Of a stretch of 64,000 bases of DNA, positions 3,749 to 21,773 are shown in pieces. Position 1 is the first letter of the stretch. Each line of letters starts with the position of its first letter. The notes under the pieces were generated by a model. That model worked only from the letters and a program-made list of their open reading frames with translations. It did no database searches and had not been told where the DNA came from. A program made the translations under genes and the position numbers. The stretch is from Candidatus Latescibacterota bacterium (GTDB lineage: Bacteria > Latescibacterota > UBA2968 > SICM01). Location of the stretch: positions 4,192,001-4,256,000 of the forward strand of contig CBDCJO010000002.1 of the NCBI GenBank assembly GCA_965217865.1, given 5' to 3'.

Positions 3749-5274
3749 CAGCCTGTTGAAAAAGTGCGTTTATGCCAAGATGACTGTTGTCTTTCCTTGT
3801 GGTTTGGTCCTATGATATATCAGGTTCAAACTGAGAAGGGAGGACGAGCAAATGGCAATGGGAAAACGAGGACGACAGAGACAGGAAAACCTGTTCATCG
3901 CATCGAACACTTTGGTGAAATCTCCGGGTCATCCGTTCTACGAGAAGCTGAATCAGGTATTGGGGGCGAACGGCTTCGACGAGTTCGTCGAGGGGCTTTG
4001 CCAGCGGTATTACGCTCCTCATATGGGTCGCAAGGGCATTCCGCCCGGGGTTTATTTTCGGATGCTTTTGATTGGGTATTTCGAGGGACTTGATTCGGAA
4101 CGTGGGATCGAATGGCGTGTATCTGACTCGCTGACGTTGCGCCGGTTTTTGGGGTATGCCCTTGACGAACAGACCCCGGATCATTCCAGCCTGTCTCGCA
4201 TCCGGCATCGGCTTCCCTTGGAAGTTCACGAAGCGGTTTTCAAGTGGATCCTGAGGGTCTTGTGCAAAGCGGGTCTGGTGAAGGGGAAGACGTTGGGCGT
4301 GGATGCTACGACACTGGAGGCCAACGCCGCGATGCGCAGCATTGTACGCCGTGACACGGGTGAAGGCTACCAGGCATTCCTTGAGAATCTGGCCAAGGCC
4401 TCGGGCATTGAAACGCCTACCCGCGAGGACTTGTCCAAGATCGATAAGAAGCGACCGAAGAAGGGATCGAACCAGGACTGGGAGCACCCGCACGACCCGG
4501 ATGCCAAGATCGCTAAGATGAAGGACGGTCGCACGCACATGGCGCACAAGGTGGAGCACGCGGTGGATCTGGACACCAATGCCATTGTGGCAGTGGCGTT
4601 GTCGGGAGCAGATGAAGGAGATACCGAGTCGTTGCCCTGGACGCTGCTCGAGGCGCCGCTCAATCTCAAGCAGGTCGCGAAGGACGAAAAAGCTGCCAAA
4701 CGTTTGCACAGACAGCGTATACGGGAGGTGGTTGCGGACAAAGGATATCATAGCAACGATGTATTGACCAGTCTGAAGCAAGGCGGCATCCGGAGTTACA
4801 TTTCAGAACCGGATCGGGGACGCCGCAAGTGGAACGGCCGACGAGATGAGCAGGCCGCGGTATATGCGAATCGACGCCGGATCAAGGGAGATCGCGGCAA
4901 GGCCTTGCGCCGAAGTCGTGCAGAACGGGTGGAAAGAACCATCGCTCACACATATGATACCGGTGGCATGCGCAGGTTGCACTTGAGAGACCGCGGCAAT
5001 ATCCTCAAGCGTTTGCTGATCCACATCGGGGGCTGCAACCTGGCTCTGCTCATGCGCAAAGTGATGGGCGTAGGTACTCCGAAGGCCCTCCAGGACCTGG
5101 CCAAGGCCTTGCAGCGTCTACTGCTCGTCCTACAATCACGTTTGCTGCCCTCGGTCACCTTTTTAACCTCTTATCAGCGTCTCCTGCTCAATCTCCTTAC
5201 CTTGATTTATCTGACCCGCACTCCAGGCGTCTTTTCCGTTTATGTGCGTTGAAAGGTAGTTCTTCAACGGGCTG
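3749..5274 (+). mobile_element. IS1182/IS5-like insertion sequence, copy 1 (1526 bp)
   Basis: Terminal IRs cagcctgttgaa / ttcaacgggctg; CTAG on both sides; near-identical to 24598-26123 and 28922-30447. Confidence 0.92.
3852..5252 (+). CDS. DDE transposase (DUF772-like N-terminus)
   Basis: TPDHSSLSRIRHR, GVDATTLEANA, VVADKGY, RVERTIAH motifs. Confidence 0.92.
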   Translation: MAMGKRGRQRQENLFIASNTLVKSPGHPFYEKLNQVLGANGFDEFVEGLCQRYYAPHMGRKGIPPGVYFRMLLIGYFEGLDSERGIEWRVSDSLTLRRFLGYALDEQTPDHSSLSRIRHRLPLEVHEAVFKWILRVLCKAGLVKGKTLGVDATTLEANAAMRSIVRRDTGEGYQAFLENLAKASGIETPTREDLSKIDKKRPKKGSNQDWEHPHDPDAKIAKMKDGRTHMAHKVEHAVDLDTNAIVAVALSGADEGDTESLPWTLLEAPLNLKQVAKDEKAAKRLHRQRIREVVADKGYHSNDVLTSLKQGGIRSYISEPDRGRRKWNGRRDEQAAVYANRRRIKGDRGKALRRSRAERVERTIAHTYDTGGMRRLHLRDRGNILKRLLIHIGGCNLALLMRKVMGVGTPKALQDLAKALQRLLLVLQSRLLPSVTFLTSYQRLLLNLLTLIYLTRTPGVFSVYVR

Positions 5275-5556: not shown

Positions 5557-6588
5557 TCAGGCAGCCTTGTGGATGGTCTGGGATGTTCTTTGCCGATTGA
5601 TTTCTATGCGGCGCTGCCGAGCCTCCTCCTTTCGACCTTGTCGGTGGTGAAGAATCTTTTGATGCTGGCCTTTATGCCTCTGAAGAGGCGTGACATACTG
5701 TATTGCCCCGTGATAGCGTTCGGCGTTGTAGCTGTGAATGAAGGAATCAATCAGGCCTTCCAGTTGATGGAATGTGAAGATGTCCTGGAAGCGCAGCCAG
5801 TCGTATTTGAATGTCCGGAAAAAGGCTTCGATCCAGGCGTTGTCCGTGGGTGTTTGATATCGGGCAAACAGCTGCGAGATGCCCAGGTCCTTGAAGAATT
5901 GGGCCATCGATTTGGCCTTCATCTGAGATCCGTGATCTGAGAGGGCTGTCAAGCTTATGGGCCCAGTGTCCAGGTCCAGCAGTCCTTCGTTGGCAAGGGC
6001 TTGATCCCAGGCCTGTTTGACCTGCTCCACGGTCGCGTTGAAGGAGAGCTTCCATCCTACGATCTTCCTGGAATACACGTCGAGAATGGCGGTAAAATAC
6101 AGGAACAAACCGAAAAATGGGATGTAGGTCAGGTCCCAGCTCCAGACCTGATTAGGACCTTCAGGTTTGACCTGGGGCTTGCTCTGCTTGACCGGCGTCC
6201 TCACCTGTTTCCTGCGTGCCAGACGTTCTTTCCTGGCCTGTCGGTAGAAGCTGGAGGCCGAGGCCTGCACTACCCCCTTCTCTGAGGCTACCACCGCCAG
6301 CTGATGGGGAGGCAGATCGGCATAGGTCTCATCCCTTAAGAGGGCCGGGATTTGCTCTTTCTCCTCCCTCAGCAATCCGTGTGGGGCCTCATCAGGGGCG
6401 GGCCCGGGCTTCCCATCCAAAAGCGGGTCCGACACCCCATCCAGCTTCTCTTCTCGATCTCGCCGGCTCCAGGCACAATACCGCTGGAGGGGAAGCTGTA
6501 GGATCTCGCAAGAACGGGTGAGTTTCACCCCTTTCTCCTTGGCCCGATGGACCATTAAGAGGATCTCGCGTTTGACCTCAGCTTGCAC
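5557..6588 (-). CDS. Transposase OrfB (rve integrase core)
   Basis: PNQVWSWDLTYI, ILDVYSRKIVGW, SDHGSQM, DNAWIEAFFRTFK, YNAERYHGAIQY. Confidence 0.9.
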   Translation of the reverse strand: MQAEVKREILLMVHRAKEKGVKLTRSCEILQLPLQRYCAWSRRDREEKLDGVSDPLLDGKPGPAPDEAPHGLLREEKEQIPALLRDETYADLPPHQLAVVASEKGVVQASASSFYRQARKERLARRKQVRTPVKQSKPQVKPEGPNQVWSWDLTYIPFFGLFLYFTAILDVYSRKIVGWKLSFNATVEQVKQAWDQALANEGLLDLDTGPISLTALSDHGSQMKAKSMAQFFKDLGISQLFARYQTPTDNAWIEAFFRTFKYDWLRFQDIFTFHQLEGLIDSFIHSYNAERYHGAIQYVTPLQRHKGQHQKILHHRQGRKEEARQRRIEINRQRTSQTIHKAA

Positions 6589-6611
6589 CCGGTGGCCCTT
6601 GATCGGGCCTG

Positions 6612-6947
6612 TCAGATCCCATTCACACTTTTTTTTAGCAGGGAAAGTTCCACAGATTGCTCAATGATCGTTTGCTCCAGGCGTGCCCGCTCTTTGCGCA
6701 GCTGCTCCACCTCCTCAGCCGATACCATCGGCTTGCGGCTCCGGCGACCCTTGAACTCCTTGAGGGCCCCGGACTTGACCGACTCACGAATACGCTTTAG
6801 ATCCGAGGAATGAATGCCCCATTTCCGCAGCACCTGTGCAATGGGAACATCTCCCCGGCTGGCTTCAAGGAAAATCTCATACTTCTGTTCCGGGGACAAG
6901 CTCCTGCGCTTCTTGACCGGGTCACTGTTTGAGGACAGTTGCTCCAT
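6612..6947 (-). CDS. Transposase OrfA (HTH plus coiled coil)
   Basis: KRRSLSPEQKYEIF...LRKWGI HTH; AAAAAAAAG slippery site (6628-6636, minus strand) would give a -1 shift into orfB. Confidence 0.85.
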   Translation of the reverse strand: MEQLSSNSDPVKKRRSLSPEQKYEIFLEASRGDVPIAQVLRKWGIHSSDLKRIRESVKSGALKEFKGRRSRKPMVSAEEVEQLRKERARLEQTIIEQSVELSLLKKSVNGI

Positions 6948-7826
6948 CTTTACTCCTCCTGTGAGGTCAGGGATATCCCAAAATATGTATCCCTTCTCAA
7001 CCCTACAGGCAACCAGGATCTTGCTTCGACCTTGCCCCCGTTTTTTCGGGCGATCTCAGACAAAAGATACCTGCGTGCTGCTTCCCAATCCATTTGAAAT
7101 GAGCATTCCCATCAAATTCGCCAACTTGACGTGAAGTTTCTCCAAGCCCTTCAAGTGTTTCTGAACTTTTTCGGCAAATTCCTGATTTGCCGAAAGTCGT
7201 TGGTTCTTGCCAGCCATGTTCATCAACTCCTTTCTCAATCGGTTCCTGGAAGTATGGAGCTGATTGTTAACTTTCGTCACGGCGATCTCCAGGAAGGAGG
7301 CTATTTCCTTCTGAGAGAGCTCGGCGATATAGAAGAGAATCACAACAGTAAGTTCAGGCTCTGAAAGTGCTTCGATTGCGGTCAGCACCTCTTCTTTTCG
7401 ATTCCTTTCATCCAGAAGCTCGTCTGGACTTTTTTGGTCCGAGGCCACATCCCGGGCCTCATCTAATTGTTCAGTTGGAACTTGCTTTCCCCGAGTGAGC
7501 CGATCACACTGAGTCAAGATCACTCTGCGAAACCACCCTGGAAATGCGGAAGGCACTTTCAGGTTGCGTAGATTTACGAAGGCACCAATAAACGCTTCCT
7601 GAGCAGCATCTTGTGCCAAATGCCAATCCCTGAGTTGCGAGAAAGCAAAGGCCACTGCCATGTCCTGGAACCGCCGAACAATTGTGTCAAAAGCGTCCAG
7701 ATCGCCATTTTGAGCCCGAACTACGACGGCATCTAGCTCTTCCATCTCCCATCCTATCTTATTAGAAGGCCTTCTACGTATAAAGACCCAACCTGGCGCC
7801 AATAGCTTTATAGAGAACTTTCTATC

Positions 7827-8728
7827 ATCTAAAAAGGCCCATCGCCAGTGCCCTCTTACAGGGAATGTAAGTAATTGTGCTATGGAAACAGAAGAGGTTT
7901 ACGAGCTTGCCGAGAAATTGGGGTGTGCGCAGGCAAGGATCGCTGACCGTTCGCCTTCGCCGGGAACTGTCGACACGTCCGTTCCTGGATTGCGGCTGAC
8001 GATTGTCCCGTCGCATGATACACCATATCCTTCGAGCAATCAAAACCGCGCACAGACTCTTCCTGGCGGAGTCGGCTGGCAGAAAGACTCCGCAGCAAAA
8101 TGCGTCGACCGCTACGTGGACGCGGGCGTGGAACGCTTTTTTGTATGGGTCAACGCGTGTCCTGATTGTGAGCGGATTGTACGTGATCTAAAGAGTGCGG
8201 GATTCAGGAGTTTTACAGGCGCCGGTTATCCAGTCTTGGCGCGCTCAGCCGACCGGATCCCGCAACCCGACACGTCATTCGTCGTCCGGCCCTTCAACCC
8301 TTCCCGGGATCGCAAGCGAATTGGTGACTACCCCGATTCAGAACGCCGTGAGGCCATCGTGCGTTCGCTTAAGCATGGCGACGAGCAGTATTTTATTGCT
8401 TGGGAGGGGAAGACCCCAGTTGCAACCGCTTCGGTAGTCGTGAACGGCCTGCTGGGCTATCTTTATGGCACTTTCACACTGGAGCCATATCGTGGCAGAG
8501 GAGCACAGACGGCCCTGATCGCAGCTCGCGTAAACTACGCAGTTGAACTAGGCTGCAAGTGGGTCGCCTCTGAGACGGTAAGTCGAGCCAAGACCTCCTT
8601 GGGGAATCTTAAGCGTCAGGGATTTCGCGTCATATACAAGAAACGAGTCTTCTCCTGGAAGGAGAAGCTCAAATAACGAGTCCCCTTCGGCCATCAAGGA
8701 CGGGCACTGGTGATGGGGCTTTTTAGAT
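7827..8728. repeat. 27-bp inverted repeats (7827-7853, 8702-8728) bracketing a GNAT gene
   Basis: atctaaaaaggcccatcgccagtgccc vs gggcactggtgatggggctttttagat, 25/27 complementary. Confidence 0.8.
7882..8676 (+). CDS. GNAT-family N-acetyltransferase
   Basis: TLEPYRGRGAQTALIAAR acetyl-CoA motif; SLGNLKRQGF. Confidence 0.8.
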   Translation: METEEVYELAEKLGCAQARIADRSPSPGTVDTSVPGLRLTIVPSHDTPYPSSNQNRAQTLPGGVGWQKDSAAKCVDRYVDAGVERFFVWVNACPDCERIVRDLKSAGFRSFTGAGYPVLARSADRIPQPDTSFVVRPFNPSRDRKRIGDYPDSERREAIVRSLKHGDEQYFIAWEGKTPVATASVVVNGLLGYLYGTFTLEPYRGRGAQTALIAARVNYAVELGCKWVASETVSRAKTSLGNLKRQGFRVIYKKRVFSWKEKLK

Positions 8729-8761
8729 CGACGAAGGAGATTCGTTTAATTCGACGACACG

Positions 8762-10198
8762 TCAATTTACCCTGGGAAAGAGCACGGCTCCCTGACGAAT
8801 CTCCGGTCCAGAAAATCTCTCCTTGATTTCTTGCCCGGTTCCGGGTAGAAATGGGGCCAGCCCCTCTCCCACCGATCTAATCGAATCCACCCACCTGGTC
8901 AGGTGCCCTCGAAGGGCGGAAATTCTACCTTCCTTAAGGAGGTCCCACGGTCTGACACTTTCTATTTGCCGGTTCAGATCTGTCACACCCCCTTGTAGGA
9001 TTTCCAAGCATTTGTGATACAGAAATCGATCCGCATAATACGCAACATCAGCGGGCGGATTTGAACCCCTGCCTGGCGTCACTTTGATTCTCGCCCTTTC
9101 ACATAGAGTTTCGAGGCGTCGGACGAGGTTGCCAATACCATTCGCCAGCTCGGACGAGTATACCTCCCGGAACCTGGTGAGCGAAAAGTCCCCATCCGCT
9201 CCGCTGGGGATCGCCCTCAGAAGGAAATAGCGGAGGGGGTCCGGTCCGTACTGGTCGATGATCGGGAAGGGATCGACCGCGTTGTGGCTGGATTTGCTGA
9301 TCTTTTCGCCGTCGACCGTAAGGAAACCGTGCACCACCAACTTATCGGGAAGAGGCAGCCCTGCGGACAGCAGCATCGCCGGCCAGTAGATTGCGTGGAA
9401 GCGAAGGATGTCCTTGCCGATCACGTGTATCTTGCAGGATTGGTCGTTCCAGAAACGCTCGAAGTCTTCGTCGTTTCGGCCAAAGCCGATTCCGGTAAGG
9501 TAGTTTGTCAAAGCATCAAACCAGACATAGAGCACCTGGGATGGGTCCCCCGGAACAGGGACTCCCCAGCCGCCGGACCTCTCGCAAGGCCTGGAAATGC
9601 TGAAATCCACCAGTCCCCGGCGAACGAACTCCAGGGCTTCGTTCTCTCTTGCTTGAGGAAATATCCGGAGCCGCCCGGATGATATCAGGTCTTCGAGTTC
9701 TCGCTGGTAGGCAGAGAGTCGGAAGAAGTAGTTCGTCTCTTCCACAACCTCAGGTTTGGTGGAGTGGATCGGACAACGGCCTTCATCCAGCTCCTCTTCT
9801 TCATAGAAGCCTTCGCAGCCTGCGCAATAGAGCCCCTTATAACGGTGGGGAAAAATGTCACCTTTTCGACAAAGTTCCCAGAATTTCGAAGCACCCAGAT
9901 GATGCGCCGTCAAGGATGTTCGGATGAAGTTGCCGTTTGAAATAAGCAACTCTGCGGACAACCTCTTGAACACGTCCGCGTTTCGATCACAGAGCGCTTG
10001 AGGCGTTAGGCCTGCTTGTTCAGCGGACCGAACGTTCTTCAGGGCATTCTCGTCCGTTCCGGTGAGCAAGAAGGTTTCATTCCCTCTTAGACTTTCCACT
10101 CTGGTAATCACGTCAGCCAGAACGAGTTCAAACGCAAATCCGACGTGGGGGTCCGCGTTTACGTAGGGAATGGATGTTGAGACAAAGGTGGTATTCAT
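8762..10198 (-). CDS. metG: Methionyl-tRNA synthetase, short form
   Basis: STSIPYVNADPHVGF (HIGH variant), LTGTDEN, YVWFDALTNY, GKDILRFHAIYWPAML, KISKS. Confidence 0.93.
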   Translation of the reverse strand: MNTTFVSTSIPYVNADPHVGFAFELVLADVITRVESLRGNETFLLTGTDENALKNVRSAEQAGLTPQALCDRNADVFKRLSAELLISNGNFIRTSLTAHHLGASKFWELCRKGDIFPHRYKGLYCAGCEGFYEEEELDEGRCPIHSTKPEVVEETNYFFRLSAYQRELEDLISSGRLRIFPQARENEALEFVRRGLVDFSISRPCERSGGWGVPVPGDPSQVLYVWFDALTNYLTGIGFGRNDEDFERFWNDQSCKIHVIGKDILRFHAIYWPAMLLSAGLPLPDKLVVHGFLTVDGEKISKSSHNAVDPFPIIDQYGPDPLRYFLLRAIPSGADGDFSLTRFREVYSSELANGIGNLVRRLETLCERARIKVTPGRGSNPPADVAYYADRFLYHKCLEILQGGVTDLNRQIESVRPWDLLKEGRISALRGHLTRWVDSIRSVGEGLAPFLPGTGQEIKERFSGPEIRQGAVLFPRVN

Positions 10199-10325
10199 GG
10201 CACGTCCTTTCCTTATCGAATGCTTTATGAGAGGTGACCGATTTTGACGTGCGCATCCGTTCCAATCCGCCGTTGCTACCTGCCGAAAAGCACTTCATTT
10301 TGCCTCCAGTTTGCCCAAAGAGGGC

Positions 10326-10362
10326 AAAAGAAAAAGCCCGCTGCCAAATCCTGACAGCGGGC
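10326..10362 (-). terminator. Intrinsic terminator/attenuator hairpin upstream of metG
   Basis: Minus strand GCCCGCTG-tcaggatttgg-CAGCGGGC followed by TTTTTCTTTT. Confidence 0.8.
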
Positions 10363-10387
10363 CCTTAGATCGATAGATTGAATCAGT

Positions 10388-10528
10388 TTATGTTCTATAG
10401 TCCAGAGGGTATTCCACTGCCGCGGAAACTCTATCTCGCATAGACATACCCATGCCATTCCGGACAGTGGAGGTGCTTTGCCAATCTTGACAAACTGATT
10501 GAAAACCAAACGTGGCCTTGATTGCCAT
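10388..10528 (-). CDS. Putative 46-aa leader peptide with an MGMSM cluster
   Basis: AAGGAG RBS; MAIKATFGFQSVCQDWQSTSTVRNGMGMSMRDRVSAAVEYPLDYRT*; ends 26 nt before the terminator. Confidence 0.6.
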   Translation of the reverse strand: MAIKATFGFQSVCQDWQSTSTVRNGMGMSMRDRVSAAVEYPLDYRT

Positions 10529-10757
10529 GAAATTCTCCTTTTGCAGCATAAATAAATCTACCTTAATACCGATCCTCTGTCAAGTGGGGAGGTTTTGCTG
10601 CAACGCCTAACAAGCTTTTGCGGCTCGGCGTATCCACACCCCTCGACGACTTCTCCCTCTCACTGATCCCAGCTGGCCACGAAGTCGTCGATGTCGAAAT
10701 CCGCTGGCATTTCGTAAAAGAAGTATTTCATCGGTTAACTCACAAGAGGCAAATCTT

Positions 10758-11696
10758 ATGAAGGTTGATGAGATCAAGCGAATAGCCGTTGTCGGTGCCG
10801 GCTTGATGGGCCACGGGATCGCCCAGGAATTTTCCCTCGCCGGTTATGAAGTCCACCTGCAATCTCGTACCGAAGAGAGTCTGCAAAAAGCCATCTTGGA
10901 TATTCAGAAAAACCTCGAGTTCCTAACGGGGCTTGGACAGGTGACCCCTGAGCAGGCCGAGCCCGTTCCGGCCAGGATCCATACCACTACGGAGTTCGAA
11001 CAGGCGGTCGAAGACGCCGATGTGGTCATCGAGTCCGTCTTCGAGGATCTTGCGCTCAAGCAAAAGATCTTTCAGGACCTTGACAAAGTGTGCCCGGAAC
11101 GCACGATCCTGGCGAGCAACACCTCCAGCTTGATGCCGAGTGCGTTCGCGTCCGGCACCCGCAGGCCTGAAAAGGTGCTCGTGGCACACTACGCCAACCC
11201 GCCTTATTTAATCCCGGTCGTCGAAATCGTCCCGAGTGGGGAGACATCCGACGAAACCGTGACGACCATATCTGATCTCCTCACAAAGATGGGAAAGCGC
11301 CCCGTCATCGTACAAAAAGAAGTCCCGGGTTTCGTCCTCAATCGCCTTCAGGGAGCGCTTCTTCGGGAGGCGCTTTGGCTTGTAGAAAACGGCATTGCGA
11401 GTCCACAGGATGTGGATATCGCCATAAAGAACGGCATCGGACGACGATGGGCGGCGGCCGGAATCTTCGAGGTGTTTGAGATCGCAGGATGGGATTTATT
11501 GATGGCGATGGCTTCAGGCCTTCTCCCCCATCTTGCATCTTCGCCGGAAGTACCTTTGGTGCTGAAAGAGAAAGTCGAACGCGGCGAACTCGGGGTAAAG
11601 ACCGGGAAGGGGTTCTATGAGTGGACTCCGGAGTCGGCCGAGGCCCTGAAACAAAGAATTGCGGAAGCCCTGGTCAAAATAGAGCGGTGGTCCTGA
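10758..11696 (+). CDS. 3-hydroxyacyl-CoA dehydrogenase family protein
   Basis: VVGAGLMGHGIA, ILASNTSS, HYANPPY, PGFVLNRLQ, GVKTGKGFYEW. Confidence 0.92.
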   Translation: MKVDEIKRIAVVGAGLMGHGIAQEFSLAGYEVHLQSRTEESLQKAILDIQKNLEFLTGLGQVTPEQAEPVPARIHTTTEFEQAVEDADVVIESVFEDLALKQKIFQDLDKVCPERTILASNTSSLMPSAFASGTRRPEKVLVAHYANPPYLIPVVEIVPSGETSDETVTTISDLLTKMGKRPVIVQKEVPGFVLNRLQGALLREALWLVENGIASPQDVDIAIKNGIGRRWAAAGIFEVFEIAGWDLLMAMASGLLPHLASSPEVPLVLKEKVERGELGVKTGKGFYEWTPESAEALKQRIAEALVKIERWS

Positions 11697-11812
11697 ACAT
11701 CCTAGTTTCGGTCGGTTCGCAAAACCTGAGAACGTCAAGGCAAGTTCTGCTTTGATCACGAAAAGCCGGCACTGTCCTGGCCCCGCAAGTGAAGGCTCTT
11801 GGAGGATTGTTG

Positions 11813-12993
11813 ATGTCGAAGACCTCAACCAGAAAAGCGAAGTTCATCTCTGAATTGAGAAAACAATTCGTTGATATGCTTTATGCCACCCAGGCCCTTA
11901 AAACAAAAGAAGTCGAAGCAGCCTTGCGATTTGTCCCGAGACACCTATTCGTTGATCGATTCTATGATTTTCAGAAGAAGAAACAATATCGTATAAAAGT
12001 GGATCCTGAAAACCCTACACCTGCACAATTGAAAAAGATATACTGTGACGATGCCCTGGTATCTCACCTGAGTCCGCACCCAACCAGTTCCACATCCCAG
12101 CCCAGTCTTGTTGCTCAGATGCTGGAGGAACTTCAGCTCAAGCCTGGTATGAAGGTTCTCGAAATTGGTGCCGGAACAGGTTGGAATGCTGCTTTGATGG
12201 GACATATTGTTGGTTCCAACGGCCACGTATGCACTATCGATATACAAACGGATGTTGCTCGAGGCGCCCGTCAGAAAATTCGTCGCTTTGACGCTAAGAA
12301 TGTGACGATTATTACTGCCGACGGTTGGAACGGATATCGAAAAGGAGCTCCTTACGACAGAATCATTACGACGGTAAGCTGTCCGGACGTTTCTCCTCAC
12401 TGGACCAGTTGAAGGGAGATGGGGCACTGTTGATAACGCTTCAGGACATACCGGGGGCATGTGATTGTCTTATGCCATTCTTGTGGAAAAAGAAAGATCA
12501 TCTGGAAGGTGAAGTGGTTGGATCGCCTGGATTTATGGTATTGCAGGGAAAGTATGGGATGGAGGTCGTGTTACCTGATGTGGCGAAGGAACGATTGACT
12601 CGTGCAAGAGCCGACAGAAAAGCGCATAAGAAGACAGCACCGTGGATTTGCTGGAATCCAGGCATACGCAGATGGACGGCGCTAGAGCTATTGTTTTTTA
12701 CCACTCTGGAAGGGATGTTCGTTGAGCCTGCATTAAGCCATTGTATTCTTTCCTACAAAGATTCGGAGAGTATCTGTATCACTGATACAGGTGAGGAACA
12801 CATTGAAGTGTATGGCGGCGAAGAAACCTATCGGGCTTTTGAGGATGTGGCTCGAAAATGGATCGAATTAGGGGCTCCGCGAAGAATCGCATACCGTATG
12901 GAAGTTTGGCCGAAGCAGGCTAAGAAGCGTAAACCAAAGAACGGCTGGTTGATGCAGCGTGTTCATTCACAGTTGATTTTTCGATTGAAATAA
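11813..12993 (+). pseudogene. Protein-L-isoaspartate O-methyltransferase-like protein with C-terminal extension, frameshifted near 12405
   Basis: VPRHLF, SSTSQPSLVAQML, VLEIGAGTGWNAA, APYDRII; continues as LDQLKGDGALL in another frame. Confidence 0.8.
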
Positions 12994-18697: not shown

Positions 18698-20187
18698 TCA
18701 TTTTCTCCTTGCATTTTCCCATAGATGCCGAAACCCGTTCTGTTCTCTTCGCGTCAATATTTTCCATAGAATCAAATTATCCTTAAAATAATTCGAGTCA
18801 TTCAAATGATAATTTTTAAGGTAATTAAAAGATAAAGGCTTGACAAGTGGACCCATATTGTGTATATTATATACACACTTAAGGAGGTTCACAATGAACT
18901 TGTTTGATATTATGACCCGCTTTCCAGACCAGCAGTCATGCATCGATCATCTTGAAAGGATCAGGTTTGGAAACGAGCCTTACTGCCCGCTTTGCGGGGA
19001 TATGGACGTTGCTCGCAAGAAGGAACGAAACCTTGTGGGCCGTTGGAACTGCCACGGTTGCAATTCCAGCTTCAACGTATTGTCCAAGACCATCATGCAG
19101 AAAACGAAGGTGCCGCTTCAGAAGTGGTTCTGCGCAACGTGGTATTTATGTTTGTAATTCCCATAATAATATACCCAATACCAGCCAGGCCGTCAAGCCT
19201 TTATCTTTTAATTACCATTTTTAATTTCTTCAGGCGTTAATCGATCCTTAATTGAAAGATTGACTGGAAATTGTCCAATATTCCGAACATATCCCACTTG
19301 CATCTCTGGGCCAATTGAATAATTGATCCACTCTTCCGCAATGCGTATCATCTTCCGATTATTTTCTAAGGAGCAACCGATCATCCAATTATCCACCCAT
19401 CCGGTTACCCCTTCTTTAGGTTGCGAGAATTTCCAAACCTCCCCCCTTTTTTTAAGCTCATGAAAAGAAAAACCCCACGCTGTCGCCAGAGTAAGACCTT
19501 GTAATTGGTCGGCTTTATCAACACCTACCCAAAATGATTTTGCATTATGTGCAAGGATCTTCAAGTGATGTTGAAACTTTTCATTTTTTCTAAGAAATTC
19601 AAAGTCAAAGATCTGTTCCTTATTAAAACCTAAAGCAAGTGCGGTAATATAAATATTAGCCTCATGGTAATCGGAACTTATTATATAAGCACCAGCGTAT
19701 TTTTTTCCCAAAAAACATTCCAGCTTTTGGGTTCTTTTTTCACGAGACTTGTGTTGTAAGCAAGTCCATAAGGCCCATATACGATAGGGACACCATATAT
19801 CTTATCATCTTGTGTAATATATTCTGCCTTCTTTAAAGCAGGTATGATGTATTGATAATTCGGAATATTTTCCAGGTTAATTGGTAATACAAGCTTTCCG
19901 CGAATTAAATTCCATTGGTGTGATTTTGGAATGTTATGGGCCGGGCTAATAAGATCAACGTTTTTTGCTCGAATTTCATAAAAAAACTCTTTAGGATCGG
20001 AAACGTCTTTAACAACAACCTTTAAATCTATATCATATCTGTTTTTGATGAATTGTTCGAATTGTTTGGTATGCGTCCCTGGAGCGTATCCCTCCCAACA
20101 TAAAATCCTCAATTCTTCAGAATAACAATAGGGAGTAAGAACGATACAAAAAAACAGGATCACGATAAGTCGTGTTAAGATATGCAT
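18698..20187 (-). pseudogene. ABC transporter substrate-binding protein (PotD/PotF-like), frameshifted and IS-interrupted
   Basis: Signal peptide, LRILCWEGYAP, YGVPIVYGPYGLAYN, PKEGVTGWVDNW; frameshift near 19705; last codons (YHLNDSNY...NARRK*) lie beyond the IS1595 remnant. Confidence 0.8.
18820..19216 (+). mobile_element. Internally deleted IS1595-family element (397 bp, MITE-like)
   Basis: 25-bp IRs ggtaattaaaagataaaggcttgac / gtcaagcctttatcttttaattacc; 8-bp DR ATTTTTAA; encodes only the Zn ribbon (CPLCG, CHGC...FNVLSKTIM...KWF). Confidence 0.88.
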
Positions 20188-20975: not shown

Positions 20976-21773
20976 GTGGATATTCCAGATCTTCCTGATC
21001 CACTGTATCCTCATCTCGTGGGCTACACATCAGATGGTGAGAACCTGAAAACAGGGTCTTGCGCAGACGTCTTCCATTTCGTTCACCCAACGAAGCAGGG
21101 GTTGTTTCTCAAAATCAGGGATTTGGGGATTGCTCCGAATGAGTGTACTCTTGGCGCGGAGAAGGCCGCGATGTCGTGGTTGAAGGGAAAGCTGAGTGTG
21201 CCTCGCATTGTTTGTTTTCACAACGAAAGAGACACCGAGTACCTCCTTATGACTCAGGTGCATGGCGTTTCTGGAGTCCACGAAGAGTCGTTGAATAATG
21301 GAGCTAATCTCATGCGTGAATTCGCGTTGGGCATGCGTGAGATCCACTCGCTGGGATTCGAGTCGTGTCCATTGGACTGGCGCCTGGAAAACCTTCTTGT
21401 ATGGGCTCAAGATCTGATTGAGACTCTAACAGAGGCCGAAATCCCGAATCGAAAGACAAGGAATTCTCTCAAGCTCGAGCTGCAGGAGCTCAGGGACCGG
21501 CAGCCGTGTCAGGAGGATTTGGTATTTACTCACGGCGACTATTGTCTGCCTAATATTCTGCTGCGCGACGGACGTTTGAGCGGATTTGTCGATTGGGGAT
21601 ATGCTGGAGTCGGTGACCGATACCTGGATATCGTCGAAGCACGAAACACTATTCACCAGAATCTTGGCGCGGATTGGGTGCCGTTGTTTCTCCAGGAGTA
21701 CGGTCTTCAAGAGCTGGACAAGGAGAAAATGGACTATTATCAAAGGGTTTTCGATCTCTTCGAGGTAGCGTAG
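20976..21773 (+). CDS. APH(3')-like aminoglycoside phosphotransferase family kinase
   Basis: LFLK, DLVFTHGDYCLPNIL, GFVDWGYAGVGDRYLD. Confidence 0.85.
   Translation: MDIPDLPDPLYPHLVGYTSDGENLKTGSCADVFHFVHPTKQGLFLKIRDLGIAPNECTLGAEKAAMSWLKGKLSVPRIVCFHNERDTEYLLMTQVHGVSGVHEESLNNGANLMREFALGMREIHSLGFESCPLDWRLENLLVWAQDLIETLTEAEIPNRKTRNSLKLELQELRDRQPCQEDLVFTHGDYCLPNILLRDGRLSGFVDWGYAGVGDRYLDIVEARNTIHQNLGADWVPLFLQEYGLQELDKEKMDYYQRVFDLFEVA

Follow-up and report, generated by a model that had tools for sequence, protein, structure and literature searches.

A probable methionine-codon attenuator ahead of an accessory methionyl-tRNA synthetase gene in a Latescibacterota genome

Methionine is an awkward amino acid for leader-peptide control, since the same enzyme charges the initiator tRNA needed to start the leader. 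The question is raised by an accessory gene for methionyl-tRNA synthetase (MetRS), metG, encoded on the minus strand of the window, i.e., the whole 64-kb stretch of DNA analysed, and preceded by a short ORF with clustered Met codons and a terminator: can a ribosome reading this ORF report on Met-tRNA? A sequence-only reading of the DNA had proposed a Met-codon attenuator controlling a back-up or inhibitor-resistant enzyme. From sequence comparison and modelling, it now appears highly probable that the leader is a ribosome-read transcription attenuator sensing Met-tRNA, which would raise expression of the second metG when charged elongator Met-tRNA is short.

All parts of the locus lie on the minus strand. 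A sigma-70-type promoter-like site (TTGACA-17-TAGATT; 10583-10555), recognised by consensus match only (10 of 12 positions), is followed by the RBS AAGGAG (10540-10535), read from the sequence, and by a leader ORF of 46 codons (10528-10388) with homologous leaders in relatives. The control codons are Met26, Met28 and Met30, within ATG-GGT-ATG-TCT-ATG (10453-10439). Four segments take part in alternative folds, namely (i) segment 1, with the core CCACTGTC (10470-10463), a predicted anti-antiterminator pairing with segment 2 in fold 1:2, (ii) segment 2, GGCAGTGG (10421-10414), located 17 nt past Met30 and forming the 5' arm of the antiterminator in fold 2:3, (iii) segment 3, CCGCTGTC (10360-10353), common to antiterminator and terminator, and (iv) segment 4, GGCAGCGG (10345-10338), in the 3' part of the GC-rich intrinsic terminator 3:4, which carries a U-tract (10366-10325, stem 10366-10332) and was identified by folding and terminator scan. 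The RBS, the 46-codon ORF with its Met codons and the U-tract hairpin that the sequence-only reading had described are all present, and the antiterminator pairing it had suggested between segment 2 and the 5' arm of the terminator extends over 8/8 positions, two of them G-U. Two elements add to that reading: segment 1, with which the attenuator has its full set of four segments, and a second uORF at the metG start.

The leader ORF gave no match in a protein family search, its peptide retrieved itself as sole match in a protein database, and tblastn and blastn revealed no second copy in the genome. The accessory metG (10198-8762, 478 aa) is probably monocistronic since the next gene, encoding a GNAT acetyltransferase (7882-8676), is on the opposite strand; a terminator-like hairpin lies past metG (8667-8649). 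The arrangement is not an assembly artefact, as a single related-strain contig from another study covers 8600-10892 in one piece with 56 differences. The scans for promoters and terminators carry little weight by themselves (3 found, with 1.3 and 3.0 expected); genome-wide, a terminator together with an upstream ORF of at least 3 Met in 10 codons precedes 5 of 3666 long ORFs, this locus being among the five. As for the surroundings, the GNAT gene, convergent with metG, matches AAC(6') weakly and falls far short of the cut-off, and an ORF at 20976-21773 (plus strand) was named by eye as aminoglycoside-phosphotransferase-like. Transposase-like ORFs, also named by eye, are found near the locus at 3852-5252 (plus), 5557-6947 (minus) and 18840-19157 (plus), one of which adjoins the end of an ECF sigma gene (7056-7802), and a PIMT/FxLD-like methyltransferase gene (11789-12993, plus) occurs in two overlapping frames, probably following a frameshift.

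Folding of the leader region supports mutually exclusive hairpins. Folded whole, the leader forms 1:2 together with 3:4 (z -3.58), and each segment pair folded alone adopts the corresponding hairpin as its minimum-energy structure, i.e., 1:2 (-28.7 kcal/mol, z -3.21), 2:3 (-25.2 kcal/mol, z -2.53) and 3:4 (z -3.40), segment 1 resembling segment 3 and segment 2 resembling segment 4. Two Met codons of the window leader sit in a small hairpin of the fold. The features of an attenuator are present, namely an RBS-led short ORF, a cluster of cognate Met codons, a terminator and predicted exclusive hairpins. A ribosome-walk model, computed at equilibrium with the RNA masked to 10 nt beyond the A-site codon, gives upstream pairing of segment 3 of about 80% while codons 17-32 occupy the A site, which places Met26, Met28 and Met30 within the antitermination window; once codon 34 or a later one is reached, this pairing is about 30% at most. 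In the no-ribosome control of this equilibrium model, segment 3 is still paired upstream at 0.53. A ribosome on the control codons would, on this model, mask segment 1 and free segment 2. The same calculation gave no clean antitermination window for the five distant relatives modelled (L078, L009, L010, L133 and L134).

The proposed sequence of events is as follows. With ample Met-tRNA, the ribosome would reach the stop codon, 1:2 and 3:4 would form and transcription would end near 10330. With scarce Met-tRNA, it would pause at codons 26-30 and cover segment 1, segment 2 would be left free, 2:3 would form and RNA polymerase would continue into metG. Classical attenuators terminate without leader initiation, according to the accessible part of PMC1183508, and this leader needs fMet-tRNA to start; as such, it has to be assumed that elongator tRNA-Met drains before the initiator tRNA.

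Conservation was addressed from the gene and from the leader. The closest homologues are labelled Candidatus Latescibacterota, one of them (G036, locus L001) being from the same class as the window genome. Two metG matches occur in 7 of 61 related genomes, the extra copy being of the accessory type, and 24 of 168 genomes of the phylum match metG at E 1e-112 or better, one match being a long housekeeping-type gene. A DNA search of these 168 genomes with the window leader returned one clear relative, in G036, and five short weak matches. A wider family was assembled from the regions upstream of metG and thrS homologues. Dereplicated loci, grouped by a FastTree tree, were scanned with unchanging detector settings, which required a terminator no farther than 650 nt and an ORF whose end lies no more than 80 nt ahead of it. 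A terminator preceded by a leader holding 3 or more Met within 10 codons was called before 15 of 25 genes in the window clade, where 18/25 have a terminator and ORF and all 18 of these leaders hold at least two Met. Leaders with 3 or more Met within 10 codons were likewise called before 30 of 38 genes of a Ktedonobacteria clade, which is separate, and before 2 of 4 genes of a Pseudomonadales group. With the same detector, such leaders were called before 0/22 housekeeping metG copies, 0/102 other rows, mostly Patescibacteria, and 4/175 genome-wide controls. Among the seven uncalled genes of the window clade, inspection by eye revealed a Met leader with a terminator for four (L073, L120, L121, L130), the attenuator of two (L002, L003) stands before the first gene of a longer operon, and no device was seen by eye for L025. 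Conservation of the leader Met codons upstream of homologues, on which the sequence-only reading depended, is thereby borne out before accessory versus housekeeping copies. Five leader-bearing genomes from other groups have two metG matches each. In the order of G169, a strong match was obtained in 1 of 251 sampled genomes, i.e., G169 itself, together with four weak matches without a leader call.

Met is the most enriched leader residue in both main clades, and clustered Met is the only leader motif found in common between them. Over a fixed interval upstream of the terminator, the ATGs share one frame in 62/79 cases (18 loci) and 189/217 cases (34 loci), a bias reached by 0 of 20,000 random draws for each set with no ORF chosen beforehand. 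Fourteen leaders come from one genus, and the conservation counts overstate significance because kin are not independent. Separately, loci L226-L255, from the class of Ktedonobacter, have leaders whose Met codons number about nine at most, together with terminators bearing GGCGACA-like arms; the accessory metG of this class is type-1, the other metG being of a distant type in the two genomes checked.

Beyond metG, the leaders could be confronted with the genes they precede. Eight attenuators with the window scaffold were aligned (alignment A2), the segments being picked for best pairing. Helix 2:3 is paired in 62/64 cells and helix 3:4 in 77/80 across the eight homologues (25-68% in slid controls). 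Covariation in 2:3 does not exceed that of shuffles (261/500), and in 3:4 it is modest (8/500 shuffles). Counting Met (M), His (H) and Thr (T) control codons, the three loci with metG alone score M3/H0/T2, M4/H0/T2 and M3/H0/T0, whereas the window scaffold found before an archaeal-type thrS standing alone (scaffold at L272, G054:C1:50852-51087) has Thr-rich codons (M1/H0/T7). The four loci with his or prs genes score H2-5, T3-6 and M1-2, namely (i) thrS-metG-prs in G056 (L262:7430-14111; M1/H5/T6), (ii) methyltransferase-GNAT-hisG-metG-prs-like in G098 (L261:9278-14500; M2/H5/T4), (iii) thrS-prs in G113 (M2/H4/T5) and (iv) an apparent prs remnant, seen by eye, with metG in G001 (M2/H2/T3). Two loci outside the alignment agree, i.e., a broken thrS-metG-hisI-prs-prs operon in G040 (L265:2401-7600) with Met, His and Thr codons, and metG-hisI-prs in G123 (L264:860-4109) with tandem His-rich leaders containing Met. 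The control codons of the eight homologous attenuators thus appear roughly to follow the downstream genes. Three cases fit less well: G113 holds 2 Met without metG, G098 holds 4 Thr with thrS absent from the 18 kb examined there, and the attenuator copy in G002 has no recognised gene downstream up to the end of its contig. A lag after gene loss may explain such mismatches. The window switch may have descended from the Thr/His/Met leader of a back-up operon (thrS, metG, hisG/hisI, prs), only Met codons being kept as the operon shrank to metG.

Some further traits of these loci deserve description. The back-up operons of G056, G098, G040 and G123 combine a divergent archaeal-type ThrRS (PRK03991), MetRS, HisG or HisI and PRPP synthetases under leaders mixing Thr, His and Met, several copies being broken by IS elements or deletions, and their HisI reads NCEQN where that of the window genome reads DCDGD. 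At L133 and L134, 350 nt upstream of metG, two tandem attenuator-like units each consist of a His-rich leader with Met and a terminator-like hairpin.

The enzyme itself is a type-1 MetRS, with 379.9 bits against TIGR00398 (cut-off 336.35) and E 1.4e-104 against PDB 2csx. It was described from sequence as short with HVGF/KISKS variants, which agrees with its 478 aa and both motifs; its single zinc knuckle is intact and it has no C-terminal extension. The motif changes are HIGH to HVGF, EHGxKI to ENALKN and KMSKS to KISKS. Compared with the type-1 enzymes of PDB 2csx, 4dlp and 7wpi, the catalytic, knuckle and anticodon-binding regions are the same, and it differs by these three motifs and by its grouping with Patescibacteria enzymes in a FastTree tree, which indicates grouping only and neither donor nor direction. 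A zinc-free MetRS paralogue was considered and rejected, the knuckle being kept in 23/23 clade proteins and 2-4 Cys in 38/38 Ktedonobacteria proteins.

A back-up role accords with the housekeeping metG that a search of the genome for a second copy uncovered; it encodes 647 residues with a canonical HIGH, has no leader call and is 38.6% identical to the accessory metG. The accessory MetRS may be a back-up with low Km. The other half of the earlier proposal, i.e., inhibitor resistance, does not follow from the motifs put forward: HxGF/KISKS is shared with Patescibacteria, of which 5/5 genomes checked yielded the accessory type as their only metG, and it is therefore not by itself a mark of resistance. 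Another change invites comparison, as EHG is replaced by ENA or ENS in 67/67 genes of the three leader-bearing groups, 29 of which also have Asn three residues on, and is kept in 18/22 housekeeping copies; EN(A/S) is also found in the majority of the 102 other rows, so that this change predates the leader. The substitutions G54S/A and I57N are reported to confer resistance to REP8839. In S. aureus MetRS, residues 51-57 line an auxiliary pocket bound by inhibitors, as reported in the accessible part of PMC9071491. From a reading of residue names, the ENA/ENS motif would correspond to these residues, and an inhibitor-resistant accessory MetRS is a tentative idea, possible but on the unlikely side. 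Regarding methionine supply, MetX and MetA were not found in the window genome (96% complete), MetH appeared only as pieces under cut-off and MetE-like domains are present, a pattern that does not establish methionine auxotrophy.

Several other explanations of the leader have to be weighed against control by Met-tRNA. It could be a general sensor of ribosome stalling, by antibiotic or arrest peptide, with the same hairpins and incidental Met codons, for which ermC/vmlR-like leaders provide the model: the antitermination window spans about 16 codons, so any stall inside it would open the antiterminator, some Met codons lie in paired regions and Ser is enriched too (17/18 and 28/35 leaders versus 72/175 controls). 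Such a sensor leaves unexplained that clustered Met alone recurs across clades, that the ATGs keep one frame and that control codons vary with the downstream genes, and it is judged improbable. More improbable still is metal sensing by a Met/His/Cys-rich leader, or an operon acting as a zinc-starvation back-up set. ThrRS, MetRS and HisI are zinc enzymes, and the thrS-metG-hisI/hisG-prs content as well as leaders with His and Cys speak for it, but the accessory MetRS retains its knuckle as counted above and the control stretch of the window leader is devoid of His and Cys. Zinc lack could still be an upstream stress, read via tRNA charging.

The device might also amount to a terminator, constitutive or in decay, accompanied by an ORF present by chance, or to a switch made of RNA alone such as a T-box, a SAM or another riboswitch. 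Decay or chance would fit the 9.3% contamination rating of the window genome, the broken copies in relatives L087, L088 and L133 and the degenerate second uORF of the window. Nevertheless, both metG genes are on one 5.8 Mb contig, the single-contig relatives G036, G038 and G056 likewise carry two, and the ATG frame bias together with the low genome background rate argues against a chance origin. A switch of RNA alone is countered by the absence of any match between the window and all Rfam families at gathering score, while covariance models detected no T-box (RF00230) in window or genome and no SAM-I in the genome. Taken as a whole, these last explanations seem scarcely probable. With a conserved leader and Met cluster, no T-box or SAM match and a second metG, the attenuator reading responding to Met-tRNA stands. 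Elsewhere in this genome, a 28-codon leader with Trp-Trp, plus Phe and Tyr codons, and a terminator lie before a gene named by eye as trpE-like (G000:C2, about 1269200-1269616), and a selenocysteine tRNA is encoded at G000:C2:1826890-1826987.

Downstream of the terminator, the start of metG is overlapped in a different reading frame by the second uORF, which has 56 codons (10298-10128), the RBS GGAGG (10307-10303) and a single internal Met (10256). Six relatives keep the frame of this uORF, a Gly-Gly-x-x-x-Met motif and an RBS-led start. Such a start is found in this frame in 7/7 sequences, and the window alone has a further one in another frame. The second uORF has been lost from L001 and L120. 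In the six relatives, the Met codon of the uORF falls in the arm of a hairpin hiding the RBS and start of metG, and the energy for opening the metG start drops from 10.7-20.2 to 5.9-9.6 kcal/mol with a ribosome at Met, whereas in the window it is 4.1 without a fall and the RBS-hiding fold is weak (z +1.58). Because CAUG at the start of metG is the pairing partner of this Met codon, base pairing could by itself account for the conservation of the codon. From these energies, translational attenuation by the second uORF in relatives has about even chances, and in the window, where the uORF is degenerate, it is doubtful. The model for such a mechanism is given by the mycobacterial polycysteine sORF attenuators, in which, according to the available text of bioRxiv 10.1101/834739, the Shine-Dalgarno region of the following gene is paired with the control codons until a ribosome stalls and releases it; the second uORF differs by having 1-3 Met codons, by being leadered and overlapping the gene start, and by its weak fold in the window.

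A broader scenario, rather unlikely as a whole, would have a reprogrammable Thr/His/Met attenuator controlling a mobile back-up cassette of enzymes with altered active sites (archaeal-type ThrRS, Patescibacteria-type MetRS, HisG/HisI and PRPP synthetase) as an inducible defence against a natural inhibitor, with MetRS resistant via its auxiliary pocket (EHGxKI to ENAxKN) and a second, translational Met sensor on the metG start. We know of no inhibitor of the accessory MetRS; if resistant, this enzyme would point to undiscovered natural MetRS inhibitors. A working Met attenuator would report directly, in vivo, on whether elongator tRNA-Met empties ahead of the initiator tRNA, and could serve as a biosensor for inhibitors of MetRS. 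A natural experiment is offered by the eight homologous leaders, where one RNA scaffold is kept and the control codons shift with the operon.

Paralogous synthetases under leader-peptide systems have precedents, e.g., the auxiliary indolmycin-resistant trpRS1 of Streptomyces. In bacilli, the hisS* paralogue likewise has a His leader, as described in the accessible part of PMC2965389. The present system differs from both by its Met specificity and by the recurrence of one RNA scaffold with Met, Thr, or His, Thr and Met codons. No paper describing a Met leader before metG was found in the literature searched, a picture that the attenuator lists supplementary to PMC2965389 and papers in subscription journals may alter; the accessible part of PMC4833913 contains no methionine case, and in that of PMC1262725 no conserved RNA structure is reported upstream of the methionine operons of Actinobacteria. 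A Met-specific leader has nonetheless already been suggested in print, as a putative metL, proposed as a methionine-dependent leader peptide, precedes metNIQ in S. lividans; per the accessible part of PMC8079986, it stands before a transporter, without an intrinsic terminator, and its two internal Met codons are set between Cys and Thr ones, unlike the window leader. The nearest architecture is that of E. coli pheM-pheST and of the Streptomyces trpS and leuS attenuators (PMC1262725, accessible part), where, as in the window, a leader ORF with cognate codons, an antiterminator and a terminator precede a synthetase gene; the window locus departs from them by its long leader (46 codons), by the second gene copy under control, and by control codons for Met, which is also the amino acid initiating the leader.
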